Assembly: GCA_965223905.1 (NCBI GenBank)
Contig: CBDCXV010000010.1
Location: forward strand, 288,001-352,000
Direction of reading: 5' to 3'
DNA from: Candidatus Latescibacterota bacterium
GTDB lineage: Bacteria > Latescibacterota > UBA2968 > UBA8231
Length of the DNA: 64,000 bases
The first letter of the stretch is position 1. Every line of letters starts with the position of its first letter. The translations under genes were made by a program, and so were the position numbers. Below, in pieces: positions 9,315 to 14,862 of this stretch. The notes under the pieces are model-generated. The model did no database searches. It saw only the letters and a list, made by a program, of their open reading frames with translations, and was not told the DNA's origin.

Positions 9315-10761
9315 CTTCCTCGGGACAGGACAGGAATATCGCTTATGCCCGGAACTCCGGGCAGCAACCCTCAGCGTGGGCTAGGCTCTTGGCTCCCGAC
9401 TACCGCCCAATTTCCGTGCTTTAGTTGAAGAACCAATCGAAGAGTACTCCTAAGAGGCCAACAACAAATGCGCTTAGTGCGATTACGCGAACGAAATACC
9501 AGACAGTATTCATGAAATCCCACAGCCTATCTTTCCAATGCTTCTTCAAAGGTGATCTCCCTCCTCCCGACCTAACTAAGATATCGTGACCCTATGCCGG
9601 GATTACCCATGACTGCTGAAAACCGGATAGAACGGATGGAAGCGCGGATCCGGGAGGCAGGCGAGCTGGCTTCCGACTTCGCCCGCGATCCGCACCGGCC
9701 GGCCTGGCACTTCACGCCGCCGGCCGCCTGGATGAACGACATCAACGGCGCCCTCTACTGGAAGGGGCGCTACCACATCTTCTACCAGCTCAACCCGGAC
9801 GGGGCCTACTGGAACCGCATCCAGTGGGGGCACGCCTCGAGCGCCGACCTCGTGCACTGGGTCCACCATCCTGTGGCGCTGACGCCGGAAGCGGACGGAC
9901 CGGACCGCATCGGCTGCTTCAGCGGCGGCGCCCTGGTCGACAAGGAAGGAGTTCCGACGCTCATCTACTACGGCAACCCCGACGGCCTCTGCCTCGCCCG
10001 CAGCAGCGACGACCTGCTGCTCGAGTGGACGAAAGACCCGGGCAATCCCGTGATCCCCCAGCCGGAAGAAGGGAGCGCGGACTTCGGCCGCTACACCATC
10101 CACGACCCCTGCGGCTGGTTGGAGGGCGGCCTCTACTACGCCGCGGTCAACAGGCGTGACCCTCAAGGCCAGGGGGACGGGGCCTACCTGTTCAGATCGC
10201 GGGAACTGCGGAACTGGGAGTTCGCCGGCCTGTTCTACCAGTCCCGCCGGGAGTGGACGGAGGGAGGCGAGGACTGCGCCGTGCCCGACTTCTTCCCGCT
10301 CGGCAACCGGCACCTGCTGCTCTTCTGCAGCCACCTGCAGGGAACCCAGTACTACATCGGCGAGGTCCGGGAGGAACGGTTTTACCCGGACATCCACGGG
10401 CGCATGAGCTGGGAAGGGGGCCATCTCGGCGGGCCGCGGACCCTGCTCGACGCCCAAGGCCGGCGCGTCTTCTTCGACTGGATCCGCGAGCTGCGCGGCG
10501 TCGAGCGGGAGCGCGCTTCCGGATGGTCCGGCGTCATGACCGCCCCGCGGCTGTTGTCGCTGGATTCGGACGGTCACCTGCAGATCGAACCTGCACCGGA
10601 GCTCGAGGTATTGCGGCTGGATCAGGGCGGGCACGGGCCCGTTGACCTGGCCGCCGATTCCGAGGTGCCAGTGGAAGGGGTCGGCGGCGACTGCCTGGAG
10701 CTGGCAGTCGAGATCGATCCGCTGGTAGTCCCTCAGTTTGAAATATTCTATATTGAGAAGA

Positions 10762-10801
10762 GTGAGGTCCCCCCTGCAATACCATCCGGGGGGGACCTCA
10801 C
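10762..10801. other. Strong subterminal hairpin
   Basis: GTGAGGTCCCCCC pairs with GGGGGGACCTCAC (13 bp). Confidence 0.8.
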
Positions 10802-10804
10802 AGT

Positions 10805-10873
10805 GGGGCAGGCTTAGTGCGCCACCGGGCTTCCGATCCTGGCTAGGCGAGGGTTCGATTCCCTCCTGCTCCA
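10805..10873 (+). tRNA. Atypical tRNA-like cloverleaf (nominal anticodon TCC, Gly); not a canonical tRNA
   Basis: Acceptor GGGGCAG/CTGCTCC+A; T arm GAGGG-TTCGATT-CCCTC; anticodon arm CCGGG-CTTCCGAT-CCTGG; reduced D arm without U8 or GG; no encoded CCA. Confidence 0.7.
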
Positions 10874-10898
10874 CTTTCTCTTTTCCAAGAACGCCGTC

Positions 10899-11747
10899 AT
10901 GAACCGCCTGCTTCTAAAAAAGCGCGAGCTCATCCTGAAGTGCCTTGTGGACGGAATGTCCTTGCTGGCCACTTCGCGCATTGCCTGTGTCGCTGAAAAC
11001 ACCGTAGCGCGATTGCAGCTTCTCGCCGGCGAAGTCGCTTGCGACTTTCAGGACGAACATTTACGCAACCTCAAACTGGACAGCATCGAGCTCGACGAAA
11101 TCTGGTCGTTCGTGTACGTCAAACAGAAACGTCTCGAGCAGGCGAAGCGACCACCGGAAAACGCCGGCGACTCGTGGGTCTGGATAGCCATCGACCGAAA
11201 GACCAAGCTGGTCCCCTGCTGGTTAGTGGGCGGACGCTCACAGGAAGATGCCAATCTCTTCATCGAGGACCTCGCGCAACGGTTGTCAGGAGCTCCACAG
11301 CTGACCTCAGACGCCTACGCTCTCTACATCGAAGCTATCTATCGAGCCTTCGGTTCTCAAGTCGATTACGCCATGCTGAAGAAAGAGCACAAGCCCGACT
11401 CGCCTTCCCGCAAGACGCGCATCTCCGGCGATCCGGACGACGATCTCATTTCCACCTCGATTGCGGAACGGCAGAATCTTACCATGCGCATGTCGATGCG
11501 GCGCTTCACCCGGCGTACCAACGCTTTCTCGAAACGATTTCGCAATCACGCCTTTGCCGTCGCGCTCTACTACCTGAACTACAACTTCTGCCGTGTCCAT
11601 CAGACCATCGAAACCACTCCGGCCATCAAAGCCGGGGTGACGAATCGTCGTCTGTCTCTTCTGGAAGTGGCTCAGATGACGTTAGAAGCCGAGCCAAAAC
11701 CGAATCGTCCGAAACGGTATCGGAAACAGAATCGCGATTATCGATAG
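10899..11747 (+). CDS. IS1-family DDE transposase, single ORF with N-terminal HTH
   Basis: LDEIWSFV (D), TSDAYALY (D), AERQNLTMR (E), RFTRRTNAFSK and YNFCRVH motifs. Confidence 0.92.
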   Translation: MNRLLLKKRELILKCLVDGMSLLATSRIACVAENTVARLQLLAGEVACDFQDEHLRNLKLDSIELDEIWSFVYVKQKRLEQAKRPPENAGDSWVWIAIDRKTKLVPCWLVGGRSQEDANLFIEDLAQRLSGAPQLTSDAYALYIEAIYRAFGSQVDYAMLKKEHKPDSPSRKTRISGDPDDDLISTSIAERQNLTMRMSMRRFTRRTNAFSKRFRNHAFAVALYYLNYNFCRVHQTIETTPAIKAGVTNRRLSLLEVAQMTLEAEPKPNRPKRYRKQNRDYR

Positions 11748-11831
11748 CATCTCCGACAGCTTTGGCAAACTGGATCGGGTAATCTTGGCGACCGATGTTA
11801 TGCCGTTTTCCCAGCGAAATTCTTGCTTTCG

Positions 11832-12086
11832 TCATACTTCCTCCATTTGTTCGCGCAACTCCCTGCGAAGCTGAGGAATGGTGATGACCTTGGCGGCCAA
11901 ACTGGCGTTTTGTCCCTGCAAATCATCCAGCTGGGCATGCATCACCTGAAAACCTTCCCGCATTTCCTTTTCCAGCCGATCGAAGCGCTGGTCCATCTGC
12001 TCAAAACGCTTGAGCACCTTCTGATTGAACGCTTCCTGAGCATCGAAGCGCTTGAGCATCTCTTTCTGGAACTCTTCCTGGCTCAT
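11832..12086 (-). CDS. 84-aa coiled-coil microprotein (passenger)
   Basis: GAGGA RBS; paralog of 12115..12381 (KRFEQMDQRFD, LAA.V.T.P.LRRELRE). Confidence 0.75.
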   Translation of the reverse strand: MSQEEFQKEMLKRFDAQEAFNQKVLKRFEQMDQRFDRLEKEMREGFQVMHAQLDDLQGQNASLAAKVITIPQLRRELREQMEEV

Positions 12087-12114
12087 TCCGGCATTCCTCA
12101 CTTGATTCGAGGTT

Positions 12115-12381
12115 TCATGCTTCCTGGAGCTCCCGTTCGCGAAGTTCCCGGCGTAACGCCGGAACAGTCACTATAGTAGCAGCCAACCCGGCTAGCTGGG
12201 ACTGCATGTCATCCAGTTTTTCCTCGACGTGGTCGAAGCGCTTGTCCATTTGCTCGAAGCGCCGAAGAACTTCCTGATTGAACTCTTTCTGATCCTTCTG
12301 GAACTCCAACATCTGATTCTGGAACTCCAACATCTGATTCTGGAACTCCAACATCTGATTCTGGAACTTTTCCTGGTTCAT
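12115..12381 (-). CDS. 88-aa coiled-coil microprotein with FQNQMLE heptad repeats (passenger)
   Basis: GGAGGA RBS; ATG overlaps the peptidase stop (ATGA). Confidence 0.75.
   Translation of the reverse strand: MNQEKFQNQMLEFQNQMLEFQNQMLEFQKDQKEFNQEVLRRFEQMDKRFDHVEEKLDDMQSQLAGLAATIVTVPALRRELRERELQEA
12296..12368. repeat. 21-bp perfect tandem repeat x3.5 (coding)
   Basis: TTCTGGAACTCCAACATCTGA at 12296, 12317, 12338 and partial at 12359. Confidence 0.95.
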
Positions 12382-13634
12382 TCCGGTATTCCTCCACGTA
12401 AAGGATAGCGGCCAACACCGCAGCGCCAGCGAGGTTCGCCGGCCGTCACCTTGGCCGACCGAGGCGGAACCTGATAGGGTTCGGCTCGAGACACGTCCAC
12501 CTCGTATCCCAGATCCGCTAGCGCCTGAATCGTAATCAGGCTGAGAGGACGAATTTCGTCCGAGACGGCTCCGGACGTCATGATCTCGTTCCCCAGAACG
12601 TCTTCTCGCCAATGGGAGAAATAGTTTCCGTTCTCGACCGGCACTCCTTTTCTAGCCGCACGCGCCCTTTCGCGATACCATCCGCCTCCGGCTGACTCAA
12701 ACGCCGCTCTGCTCAAAATTCCCTTGAAGTAGGTGTCGGCATTCAGAGAACGATTGACCAAGCGCTCGTCCCACTCTTCTCCTCCCTGTAGCAGGATGTG
12801 ACCCAATTCATGGATCATCGTACGAAACACGTGAGAATCGGATTCAGAGCGAATAAACTCGGAATCCAGAACCACGAGGCCGTTGATGGCAACTCCGGAA
12901 GAAGATCGAAACCACAAAGTCTGAGCACTGCCGTTTACGCCGTACCCCAAATCAGCGGTAGTTGCATGAACGCGCACGTCGTCGATAAGATCATTTTCTA
13001 CAATCCTTCCAAACCACTGCTCGTGAGCACTGCCGGCCCACCAGGACATGTCGTCGGTATCCAATGTATGCCAGGCGAAATAATACCTGTCCTGGACATC
13101 GTTCGTAACGATCCGCTCCCACGTGACCGCGGCGCGCTCGAACAGCTCCCGATGGCGGTCGGTGAACTCGTTGCCTTCGGCGAACACGAGCTCGATGTCG
13201 AACAGTGAAGGTCTCAGGGGCAAACCGATCCCGTAGGGGTTGGACACACCGGAATCGGCCATCTCCGCCCAGACGTAGGCGCCCAGCAGTCCCAAGTCGA
13301 TCCATCCGGTGACTCCGTCCCGGTCGATGTCGAGCAAGTCCAGATCCAGAGGAACATGGTACCAAGGACTGGAGAGATGAATCCAGAGTCCCTCCACGTC
13401 GAAAATGTTCACCCACCCGTCCACGACCCCGTCTCCCAGAAGGCGTCCATCCACCGTCGCCTTGGGGCTGCCCCGCTCGCTAGACGGCCGCTGGATGGGC
13501 AACTCGATCCCCCGTTCAGCAAACCAGGTTCTCATTTCAGTGTACGCTTGCTCCCTGTCGGGCTCGTGTACCCGTGAGGGCGACTCACAGCCGGCCAGCA
13601 AGACCGACAACAGCAGGAGGATGGTGGCAATCAT
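12378..13634 (-). CDS. Leishmanolysin-like (M8) zinc metallopeptidase lipoprotein with a dockerin/EF-hand-like segment (passenger)
   Basis: LLAGC lipobox; DIDRDGVTGWIDL; HELGH; SHWRE...NEIMT Met-turn; SLITIQALADLGY. Confidence 0.85.
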   Translation of the reverse strand: MIATILLLLSVLLAGCESPSRVHEPDREQAYTEMRTWFAERGIELPIQRPSSERGSPKATVDGRLLGDGVVDGWVNIFDVEGLWIHLSSPWYHVPLDLDLLDIDRDGVTGWIDLGLLGAYVWAEMADSGVSNPYGIGLPLRPSLFDIELVFAEGNEFTDRHRELFERAAVTWERIVTNDVQDRYYFAWHTLDTDDMSWWAGSAHEQWFGRIVENDLIDDVRVHATTADLGYGVNGSAQTLWFRSSSGVAINGLVVLDSEFIRSESDSHVFRTMIHELGHILLQGGEEWDERLVNRSLNADTYFKGILSRAAFESAGGGWYRERARAARKGVPVENGNYFSHWREDVLGNEIMTSGAVSDEIRPLSLITIQALADLGYEVDVSRAEPYQVPPRSAKVTAGEPRWRCGVGRYPLRGGIPE

Positions 13635-13840
13635 CCTTGTCCCCTTCCCGTGTGTGCCCGAGAAGCCGGGCTGTGCCACCGTCCACAGCAGTCCGGGACG
13701 ATCCCGCTTATTTGCGAGACGCCAGGGTAATTACTCCCGGCGCCGGGATTTGATTCGCTGTTGTATTCAGCAGGAAACCCGGCGACACGCAGGGTCCGCT
13801 GTGAAACGGTGGCATCTGAGAACATACGCAAAATACCCAC

Positions 13841-13870
13841 TTGACAATAGTTAGTGTCCTTTCTGTCTTT
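13841..13870 (+). promoter_or_regulatory. Possible sigma70 promoter upstream of the rod-shaped repeats
   Basis: Perfect TTGACA at 13841; -10 match poor. Confidence 0.35.
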
Positions 13871-13881
13871 CTGCGCCTCTT

Positions 13882-14032
13882 GGACCGGTGACCCCCCCAC
13901 CACTGACAGGGCTACTCACCCTGGGCATTTCGAGAATCGACACCCCGTAGCACGAGGTGAGCAACGCAGAGGATGTCGATTTCTCTCCCTTGTGGGCCTT
14001 GTCAATCCCAGGTGTGCGGTGGTCACCGGCCC
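13882..14032. ncRNA. Candidate structured element, rod unit 1 (151 nt)
   Basis: Closing stem GGACCGGTGACC/GGTCACCGGCCC; TGACAGGGCTAC/GTGGGCCTTGTCA; GAGAATCGACA/TGTCGATTTCTC. Confidence 0.6.
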
Positions 14033-14049
14033 TCCTTTGATGAACATTT

Positions 14050-14196
14050 GGGCCGGTGACCCAACCTGCCACCTGCCAAAGCTACTCGTCCGGGAAGAAT
14101 AGAATCGATACTCCGCAGCACGAGACGAGCAACGCAGAGCGTATCGACTTCCCTTCCTGTGAGCCTTGTCAATCCCAGGCAGGCGGTCACCGGCCC
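14050..14196. ncRNA. Candidate structured element, rod unit 2 (147 nt), diverged copy of unit 1
   Basis: GGGCCGGTGACC/GGTCACCGGCCC; CCTGCC/GGCAGG; GGGAAG/CTTCCT; ATCGATAC/GTATCGA. Confidence 0.6.
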
Positions 14197-14199
14197 TCC

Positions 14200-14236
14200 T
14201 TTGCCGAAACCAGTGAGGAGATCGGTTTCGGCAAAA
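14200..14236. terminator. Subterminal hairpin, possible terminator
   Basis: TTTGCCGAAACC/GGTTTCGGCAAA 12-bp stem just inside the right TIR. Confidence 0.5.
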
Positions 14237-14862
14237 GACAGATCCAAATTTCAAACTGAGGCATTACCGATCCGCTGGAAGCGAAGGAGGTGGGACTGAA
14301 GGTGCTGCGCTCTCCTGGAGGCGAGGAGGAAACCGCAGTCTCCTGGGACGCCGAGGCAGCGGTGCTGCGGGTCGACCTCAGCCGGTCGTCCCTCGACCGG
14401 GAGATCCGCTACACCCGCTACCGAAGGCTTCAGCCGCACCTGACGGAGAGCGAGCAATACGTCACCGCCCAGGAGGGGCCGTTCGAGCTGCAACCAGGGG
14501 AGCTGCTGACCCTGCGAATCTTCCTCGACCGCTCGATCCTCGAGGTCTTCGCCAACCGCCGGCAATGCGTGACCCAGCGCATCTACCCGACGCGGCCCGA
14601 CAGCACCGGCGTCAGCCTGTTCGCGCGCGGGGGCGATGCCAGGGTGCGGTCGCTGCAGGCATGGACCCTGGCGCCGGCGCGGATGTGATACCCTTTGGCG
14701 TGAGGCCATTTGTCTCGGGCGAAACACCCCTTCGCCAGCGCAGACCTGACTTTCCTTGCCGTAGGCAGGGCCACCTGGTTCGGCGGAGGCCCCGGCTCCA
14801 AGGGTCCAAGGGGCTCTCGGCCTGATCCCGCAGGACAACCAGATTACTTCAGGACAAACGGA

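Follow-up and report, generated by a model that had tools for sequence, protein, structure and literature searches.

An alanine-type tRNA-like sequence in front of an IS1-family transposase, and a recurring tRNA slot in related insertion sequences

Introduction

What is a tRNA-shaped sequence doing between a hairpin and the start codon of a transposase? The question is posed by a 64,000-nucleotide (nt) stretch of DNA from Candidatus Latescibacterota bacterium (contig CBDCXV010000010.1, positions 288,001 to 352,000), referred to below as the window and numbered from its first letter. A 3.5-kb element of the IS1 family of insertion sequences (IS), at 10724-14268, carries a 72-nt tRNA-like sequence of alanine type (10805-10876, + strand), hereafter the window RNA, just upstream of its transposase gene. 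A preliminary description had read it as a non-canonical tRNA-like cloverleaf, framed it as a tRNA-Gly, and offered as its role an RNase P/Z processing signal, a decoy for anticodon nucleases, a quadruplet suppressor or an integrase landing pad. The cloverleaf itself is borne out by sequence and fold, and so, by the sequence and a match to PF03400, is its place between a hairpin and the ATG of an IS1 transposase; the glycine label is not. The reading that we favour, over which we are evenly divided, is that the window RNA is a degenerate passenger tRNA, sitting in a cargo slot that recurs in related elements and now forming the leader of the transposase.

Results

The window RNA is neither a tRNA by the usual criteria nor a chance look-alike

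The window RNA was delineated by reading of the sequence, a ViennaRNA fold, Rfam and alignment to host tRNAs. Its 7-base-pair (bp) acceptor stem, GGGGCAG (10805-10811) against CTGCTCC (10866-10872), has a G:T at the third pair and can be extended by AGT/ACT to a helix of 10 bp, and its T arm is perfect (GAGGG-TTCGATT-CCCTC, 10849-10865). The anticodon arm consists of a 5-bp stem (CCGGG/CCTGG) and an 8-nt loop, CTTCCGAT, and the D region comprises only 13 nt (GCTTAGTGCGCCA, 10812-10824). Read directly, the sequence has no U8 (position 8 is a G), no GG in the D loop and no D stem, and at its 3' end the discriminator A at 10873 is followed by CTT in place of CCA. The minimum-energy fold computed with ViennaRNA reproduces exactly these arms. 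Three nt upstream ends a hairpin on the + strand, the arms of which (10762-10774 and 10789-10801) are 13 nt long and 100% complementary around a 14-nt loop, and which in the minimum-energy fold amounts to 15 bp (10762-10801). In the same fold 10755-10884 forms one closed domain, with a U-rich run 3' of the extended acceptor helix. The 151-nt region folds with a z-score of -5.07, none of 200 shuffles folding as well; the 72-mer on its own reaches only -1.62. The anatomy given in the preliminary description (T arm, acceptor of 7 bp extendable to 10, 8-nt loop, small D arm, missing CCA, A discriminator) was all recovered, as were the preceding 13-bp hairpin, the ATG 25 nt downstream and, by eye, the lack of a Shine-Dalgarno sequence. 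No sign was seen that the odd loop and D arm are assembly indels, a possibility also raised there. Logan contigs from two sequencing runs (X1 and X2) match 10600-11000 with no letter or indel difference, the independent support being weak since these runs are possibly the assembly's own source.

ARAGORN, which the preliminary description had named as a check, finds no tRNA in the 64-kb window and does not call the cloverleaf. No Rfam family reaches its gathering score within 10700-10950, where the cut-off of 29 bits for tRNA (RF00005) is missed. In permissive mode, the best match is to transfer-messenger RNA (tmRNA; RF00023), with 32.5 bits against a threshold of 47 and an E-value of 6e-11. 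It covers the acceptor and the T arm only, with 27 nt where the model has 308 positions, and a sequence below 47 bits with no mRNA-like domain is not a member of the tmRNA family. Membership of the mascRNA-menRNA family (RF01684) fails as well, at 28.8 bits against a cut-off of 42.5. Among the features that define a tRNA, the window RNA has the 7-bp acceptor and the 5-bp T stem with a GTTCRANYC-type loop, and is without a D stem of 3-4 bp, G18 and G19, U8 and a 7-nt anticodon loop. It is not a tRNA by the usual criteria.

On the other hand, the window RNA is more than a chance look-alike. When the 7.9-Mb genome was scanned for a perfect 7-bp acceptor combined with a 5-bp T stem and a TTYRANN loop, 50 matches were found, 48 of them in genes called by ARAGORN; the other two are one likely chance match and the window RNA. 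We consider it hardly credible that the feature is a chance resemblance, an assembly artefact or what remains of an attachment site used by an integrase-borne island. An attachment relic would suit the frequent duplication by integrative elements of the 3' part of tRNA or tmRNA genes, and the Rfam match is indeed below threshold. Both acceptor strands are present, however, and not the 3' part alone; the low E-value concerns precisely the acceptor and T arm; the feature stands alone in the scan of the whole genome; the contigs of two runs agree letter for letter; and no integrase was noticed among the open reading frames (ORFs) of the element, part of which were scanned against Pfam.

The window RNA derives from a tRNA-Ala

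As assessed by ARAGORN, the host genome (G000) has 57 tRNAs and one tmRNA. The best global alignment among the 57 is to a tRNA-Ala(cgc) (G000:C9:607482). Both acceptor strands and A73 are identical to those of the host tRNA-Ala(cgc/tgc), the T loop is identical too, and the differences from tRNA-Ala(cgc) cluster in the variable region, the anticodon loop and the D arm, which is 9 nt shorter, with CCA changed to CTT. In genomes of the same family tRNA-Ala(cgc) carries the same acceptor, and two of them also have the GAGGG strand of the T stem. G3:U70 together with A73 is the alanine identity set, common to tRNA-Ala and tmRNA, and is present in the window RNA. No NGC anticodon can be read in the loop CTTCCGAT in any register. 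By these alignments, the source of the window RNA is a tRNA-Ala of the host's own lineage. Compared with bacterial tRNA-Ala and the tRNA-like domain of tmRNA, it has in common G3:U70, A73, the 7-bp acceptor, the 5-bp T stem and the TTCGATT loop, but it has no D stem, U8, D-loop GG, NGC anticodon, CCA or mRNA-like domain.

Two other sources were considered and rejected. The host tRNA-Gly(ccc/tcc) give poorer alignments and have different acceptor stems. Because only the loop letters UUCC point to glycine, the earlier label is not sustained, the acceptor and discriminator being those of the host tRNA-Ala(CGC/UGC), with G3:U70 and A73. The host tmRNA (G000:C11:1830621-1830975) is normal and has a different acceptor, GGGGGCG/CGCCTCC; a tmRNA origin, rejected here, does fit the tRNA of a related element in genome G078 (see below). 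Separately, ARAGORN makes a few odd tRNA calls in the host (G000:C9:421261-421336, C4:9086-9156 and C11:1963620-1963700), among them one with a short variable arm, anticodon GAG and a poorly paired acceptor stem.

Related IS1 elements carry tRNA genes in a recurring slot

Relatives of the transposase were sampled as best-scoring subsets, which are no census. The viral-contig sample (labelled as such by the source collection) is the best 80 of 247 transposase relatives, representing 71 distinct elements at 95% transposase DNA identity; the bacterial samples hold at most 30 loci per genome search, with L163 and L164 (genome G126) left out of the scan. A tRNA on the transposase strand, ending 98-183 nt 5' of the transposase ATG, was found in 10 of the 80 viral loci, corresponding to 7 of the 71 distinct elements. 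All seven distinct genes score well above the cut-off of 29 bits for RF00005 (49.7-63.5 bits), and ARAGORN assigns them the anticodons UUA (two elements), AGU, UGC, GUA, GCU and CGG. Of 12 distinct tRNA-type genes called by ARAGORN in the viral loci, these 7 sit in a single 190-nt same-strand slot (binomial P ~6e-12). The same hairpin-tRNA-transposase arrangement was found in 2 of 28 bacterial loci, the rest of this first set having no slot tRNA, and in 1 of 14 further Chloroflexota loci.

The bacterial examples are informative individually. In a genome of the same genus (G002), the slot tRNA scores 64.8 bits against RF00005, combines a long variable arm with discriminator G and the anticodon UAU, and ends on the transposase strand 78 nt before the ATG; the end repeats of this element match, but there is no target duplication. 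In a genome of the same family (G078), an element of 2.5 kb, whose 20-nt end repeats are identical and which is flanked by a CATTAATG duplication, carries a slot tRNA of 36.7 bits, with G3:U70, A73, CCA and anticodon UCA, on the strand opposite to the transposase. A sister of this element in G085, 84% identical in DNA, is without the tRNA module (~95 nt). The Chloroflexota locus (L309) has a type II slot tRNA with A73 and anticodon UGC. Altogether, the tRNA is on the transposase strand in 11 of the 12 slot-bearing loci or elements counted. The most compact case is L193, an IS of ~1323 bp flanked by an 8-bp duplication (AATCTCCC), the sole passenger of which is a type II tRNA with A73 (2276-2358, 59 bits against RF00005) whose anticodon UUA would read the ochre stop; the L233 element measures 1906 bp. 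Since target duplications flank the window element and those of G078, L193 and L233, such elements moved as whole units. In 8 of 10 folded modules (window, L180, L193, L233, L240, L242, L243 and G002) a strong hairpin lies no more than 80 nt 5' of the slot tRNA, the hairpin being weaker in G078 and L228.

The window RNA resembles these slot tRNAs in lying inside the end repeats, 5' of the transposase, on the same strand and behind a hairpin. It departs from their norm in not reaching 29 bits against RF00005, and in not lying 78-183 nt from the ATG with a promoter-like box in between.

A further property of the slot tRNAs is that bodies and anticodons frequently do not match. Type II bodies with A73 carry UUA (L193 and L243) or UGC (L309), type II bodies with G73 carry UAU (G002) or GUA (L233), and the G3:U70 body of G078 carries UCA, an opal-suppressor anticodon; the identity classes (Ala, Ser and Leu types) are putative and follow general identity rules. 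The slot tRNAs of L180 and L228 have a common Glu-like body and a similar downstream spacer (TATAGCACAT...) with different anticodons, AGU and UGC, which suggests that the anticodon may have changed within one lineage of passenger tRNA. As a whole, the pattern of slot tRNAs argues for putative selection rather than decay.

The elements' own genes were then compared with what such tRNAs could decode. The transposases of slot elements are open frames with no internal stops, reading through TAA or TGA does not meaningfully lengthen the cargo ORFs, and no codon that the slot tRNA would read falls, in the transposases of the window, G002 and L233, at a column conserved for the amino acid suggested by its body. 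By these simple tests, the elements do not depend on their slot tRNAs to read their own genes, and self-recoding was discarded as an explanation. An in-frame TGA in the G078 transposase was likewise dismissed as a target of the UCA tRNA, this copy having several frameshifts and an insert.

The module is missing from the closest relative

The host genome itself holds the closest relative of the window element (G000:C10:1287164-1287598), a copy that is dead and internally deleted and whose protein is 65-84% identical. Its left inverted repeat (IRL) is separated from the ATG by 39 nt, with neither hairpin nor tRNA-like sequence. Because this relative has no such module, we regard hairpin and tRNA-like sequence (~135 nt) as a lineage-specific insert. 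The preliminary description had envisaged, as its own undoing, that the cloverleaf be absent from sister elements and be a randomly decayed host tRNA-Gly. The first part stands for the dead copy; the second does not, the sequence being Ala-derived and a tRNA recurring at the same place in ~10% of related elements.

No second copy of the leader was found in the host genome. A DNA search of 60 relatives returned only T-arm and acceptor matches to ordinary tRNAs, and blastn against plasmids and phages gave no match. In a pattern scan of metagenomes, 80 of the 84 stretches reported were examined and proved to be ordinary tRNA-Pro, tRNA-Ser or similar, or unrelated sequence, and in none of these 80 did an acceptor strand abut a short D region.

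A near twin in L233 and other reduced alanine-type RNAs

Among the slot loci, one other holds a sub-threshold form like that of the window, L233:2322-2392. This near twin of 71 nt lies directly after the first tRNA of L233. Its T arm is identical to that of the window RNA, its acceptor is GGGGCTG/CAGCTCC with G3:U70 and A73, the 6:67 pair being changed on both sides relative to the window RNA, its D region measures 13 nt, its loop contains UUCC, and CCA is missing. Its partial match to the tmRNA model scores 36.6 bits. The twin provides the chief reason to think that the reduced form may be a separate kind rather than the product of random wear. The argument is tempered by the viral contigs, in which many full-length tmRNA-like genes have this T arm and ending at their 3' ends; for the same reason the CCACT with which both the window RNA and the twin end was discarded as evidence that the two descend from one ancestor.

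Short RNAs combining an alanine-type acceptor (GGGGCWG...CWGCTCCA) with a T arm occur in further viral contigs: L275, L278, L283 and L285 (59 nt), L290, L298, L300, L289, L293 and L299 (67 nt), and L254 and L272. Where a normal tRNA would have its D and anticodon arms, these have a single long helix or a short linker, resembling a tmRNA reduced to its tRNA-like domain, with the message part missing. None of them adjoins an IS1 transposase.

The fold as the probable leader of the transposase

Between the discriminator (10873) and the transposase ATG (10899) there are 25 nt, most of them a pyrimidine-rich spacer (TCTCTTTTCCAAGAACGCCGTC, 10877-10898, +) with no Shine-Dalgarno-like run. No sigma-70-like site was found in 10600-11000. 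In the relatives, a promoter-like box, ATGCTTGAC...TATAAT, ends 5-10 nt before the transposase ATG, which implies a probably near-leaderless message separate from the tRNA. The spacer in the window has no such box and no room for one. With 25 nt only and no promoter-like box, transcription of the transposase of the window must pass through both the hairpin and the tRNA-like fold, and the two together are therefore its 5' leader.

RNase P, the CCA-adding enzyme and alanyl-tRNA synthetase (AlaRS) all act on minihelices made of acceptor and T arm, and a -1:73 pair, on the other side, can shift or weaken RNase P cleavage. An RNase P/Z processing signal, as first proposed, is plausible on the anatomy. 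In the scenario that we favour, a tRNA-Ala of the host lineage would have become a passenger in the slot just 5' of the IS1 transposase. It would have kept its upper half (acceptor with G3:U70, A73 and T arm) and lost the D arm and the encoded CCA, the loop growing to 8 nt; because of these losses and the 8-nt loop it is most likely no working decoder. The leader may be clipped by RNase P and 3'-end enzymes at or near 10805 and after 10873, and the long acceptor helix with the U-rich run TTTCTCTTTT may terminate some transcripts. Either event would keep transposase output low and uncoupled from read-through of the interrupted GH32 gene. Any such effect would be a by-product of the worn passenger's position abutting the ATG, and not the reason for its presence.

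The same features could instead mark a dedicated cis-regulatory signal, in which RNase P/Z cutting or termination at the fold sets the level of transposase. We judge this quite improbable, even though the fold lies on the transposase strand, only 25 nt short of the ATG and with nothing promoter-like in the gap, forms one closed domain followed by a U-rich run, and has counterparts on the transposase strand in 11 of the 12 slot-bearing cases. In the other elements the tRNA is 78-183 nt upstream of a nearly leaderless ATG that has its own promoter-like box; the coupling in the window is therefore the exception. The module is, moreover, a single copy and is absent from the closest relative, as the tRNA module is from the sister of the G078 element.

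The carrying element and its surroundings

The element comprises, in order, IRL, hairpin, tRNA-like sequence, transposase, ~2.5 kb of cargo on the opposite strand and right inverted repeat (IRR). The IRL (GGTAGTCCCTCAGTTTGAAAT, 10724-10744, +) pairs with the IRR (14249-14268, -): the 20-mer GGTAGTCCCTCAGTTTGAAA at 10724 repeats inverted at 14249-14268 with 2 mismatches in 20, where ~0.01 matches are expected by chance. The IRL motif also terminates the relatives L005, L007, L136, L193, L233 and others. A target-site duplication flanks the element, its left copy, GATCCGCT (9 bp with the next G), at 10716-10723 inside the GH32 gene and the same 8 letters at 14269-14276. The interrupted gene encodes a GH32 glycosidase, the frame of which resumes at 14269 and ends at the stop codon 14686-14688. 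Contigs of runs X1 and X2, which are from one sample, hold the empty site as well, joining 10723/10725 directly to the sequence after 14276. Empty site and target duplication together mark a recent, still polymorphic insertion.

The transposase (10899-11747, +) is one open frame of 282 amino acids (aa) matching PF03400 (DDE_Tnp_IS1; 30.8 bits against a cut-off of 24.1), and thousands of its relatives bear the source name IS1 family transposase. It is itself an orphan, the nearest of 5.8 billion proteins being 54% identical. The classical InsA/InsB arrangement with a -1 frameshift is absent, and the single frame presumably places the protein in the single-ORF subgroup of IS1 transposases.

The cargo 3' of the transposase (11748-14248, -) was mapped from the ORF list, Pfam and a repeat search. 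It encodes two small coiled-coil proteins (11832-12101 and 12115-12384) and a 433-aa HExxH protein (12378-13679) with a weak Peptidase_M8 match. The coiled-coil ORF 12115-12384 (-) contains the heptad MLEFQNQ three times in tandem and is a paralogue of ORF 11832-12101. A small ORF (11626-11835, -) starts ~90 nt past the transposase stop and runs antisense into the 3' end of the transposase gene; it has no Pfam match, and its N-terminal motif, GRQD.P..F.KA..DA, is common to the window element and its dead paralogue (G000:C10 near 1287000). Two direct repeats of ~110 nt (13933-14044 and 14101-14208), 81-89% alike and spaced by ~167 nt, lie just inside the right end.

Other observations concern the clade at large. 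Its commonest passenger is a divergently oriented gene of ~340-370 aa with a P63C domain (PF10546, 48.2 bits), 5' of the transposase in 59 loci (L174-L253); further cargo in viral loci includes a helix-turn-helix plus Peptidase_M78 protein and a DUF5343 protein. In L175-L177, L183, L195 and L231, a tRNA or tmRNA gene adjoins the right end repeat on its outer side, at 0 to ~350 nt (in L231 a tRNA overlaps the repeat), which hints that the elements often land beside tRNA genes. The host genome holds a second IS1-family element, with end repeats at C11:742597 and 750544. There, ~115 nt 5' of the transposase ATG, lies a single CRISPR-repeat-like unit (G000:C11:744570-744607, -; L009 2479-2516), which matches Rfam CRISPR-DR16 with 30.2 bits (cut-off 35) and is 3-4 letters off the repeats of the host array at C10:90933-92856.

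Discussion

Our preferred reading, a worn passenger tRNA that has come to lie in the transposase leader, joins the recurring slot in the IS1 clade to the tRNA-Ala descent of the window RNA and its missing lower parts. Several points weigh against it. The window RNA is 25 nt from the ATG, where other slots leave 78-183 nt, and there is no upstream cargo gene. The element moved recently, as the empty site still in the sample attests, so the transposase was probably expressed in spite of, or through, its leader. The L233 twin and the intact upper half could mean that the reduced architecture was selected and may not have decayed at all. Relative to host tRNA-Ala(cgc) there are 3 changes in the 32-nt upper half and ~10 in the 42-nt lower half, a contrast that looks weak. 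Both the G3:U70 rule for AlaRS and minihelix recognition by RNase P are textbook rules whose application to the window RNA is putative, and among the listed runs that hold the stretch none is on record as RNA.

The strongest competitor, which we think rather unlikely, is that the window RNA works in trans: processed, CCA-tailed, charged by AlaRS through G3:U70 and A73, and retained as cargo for whatever benefit the other slot tRNAs bring. That benefit might be missense or frameshift decoding of GGA/GGG-type codons, a tmRNA-like role as a non-decoding carrier of alanine, or service as a decoy for tRNA-cutting defence nucleases. Such a role would fit the other slot tRNAs, well formed (36.7-64.8 bits) yet with mismatched bodies and anticodons, the same reduced architecture and UUCC loop in the L233 twin, and the other short viral-contig RNAs that have an alanine-type acceptor but lack a normal anticodon arm. 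The window copy itself, however, is without U8, D-loop GG, D stem and CCA, has an 8-nt loop, and fails both ARAGORN and the Rfam tRNA cut-off; to our knowledge, D-armless tRNAs function only in some animal mitochondria. It is also a single copy with no close relatives, and by the readthrough and conserved-codon tests the elements' own genes show no need of tRNAs. For the quadruplet suppressor of the preliminary description, no sign of need was seen in the transposase, which is one open frame, and for its integrase landing pad no integrase was noticed among the element's ORFs.

A wider version of this idea is that the IS1 clade keeps a dedicated slot for chimeric tRNA-type genes, selected to alter host decoding or to defeat tRNA-directed defences, with the window RNA a working, alanine-charged member. 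The slot genes would then be Ala, Ser or Leu bodies, charged whatever the anticodon and bearing anticodons that are foreign or read stops, or else be reduced to minihelices that accept alanine. We find this doubtful, a little more so than a working window RNA as such.

Returning to the worn passenger and its slot, parts of the picture have precedents. Phages and other mobile elements carry tRNA genes, including the suppressor tRNAs of stop-codon-recoded phages. The slot elements resemble them in having tRNA-type cargo on a mobile element and stop-reading anticodons, UUA (L193 and L243) and UCA (G078). They differ in that the carrier is a small DDE IS of 1.3-4 kb, the tRNA has a fixed place by the transposase, the elements' own ORFs show no need of recoding, and the window copy is degenerate. 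IS with passenger genes (transporter IS) are also known, including a single-ORF, ISMhu11-type subgroup of IS1. Terminal repeats starting with GGT, 8-9 bp duplications, one transposase ORF and kilobases of unrelated cargo are common to both; the slot elements differ in having tRNA genes among their passengers.

Processing signals of tRNA shape are exemplified by the tRNA-mRNA co-transcript of E. coli tufB and by mascRNA at the 3' end of MALAT1. As in these, a tRNA-shaped fold and an mRNA would be in one transcript, and the mascRNA score reflects the shape with a reduced D arm. Unlike mascRNA, a vertebrate family, the window RNA matches in shape only and is no member, and its processing is a prediction. 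Natural tRNAs with mismatched anticodons are known too, namely the V-arm tRNAs of nematodes with Gly/Ile anticodons and bacterial tRNA-Pro variants with other anticodons. Several slot tRNAs are like them in joining Leu-, Ser- or Ala-type bodies, served by synthetases that ignore the anticodon, to foreign anticodons; the Glu-like bodies of L180 and L228 do not fit this anticodon-blind rule. In contrast to the nematode and tRNA-Pro cases, the slot tRNAs ride on insertion sequences, and their charging and decoding are putative. Full-text searches of the literature turned up no report of a tRNA or tRNA-like gene in an element of the IS1 family, and we are not aware that tRNA genes have been described as passengers in this family, or that a fixed slot holding tRNAs with mismatched bodies and anticodons has been.

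For the window itself the lesson is modest: the seemingly purpose-built leader of tRNA shape is best taken for a worn slot passenger. Its intact alanine-type upper half nevertheless predicts that RNase P should cut at 10805 and that the RNA should receive CCA and be charged with alanine. In the family, what is new, as far as these searches show, is a tRNA that holds a fixed place in a small DDE IS and is sometimes its sole passenger, tRNA genes on phages and plasmids being familiar. Slot elements are small enough (1.3 kb in L193) for direct testing at the bench, and if the pattern holds in a full survey, these insertion sequences would be a vehicle spreading suppressor and mismatched tRNAs between genomes.

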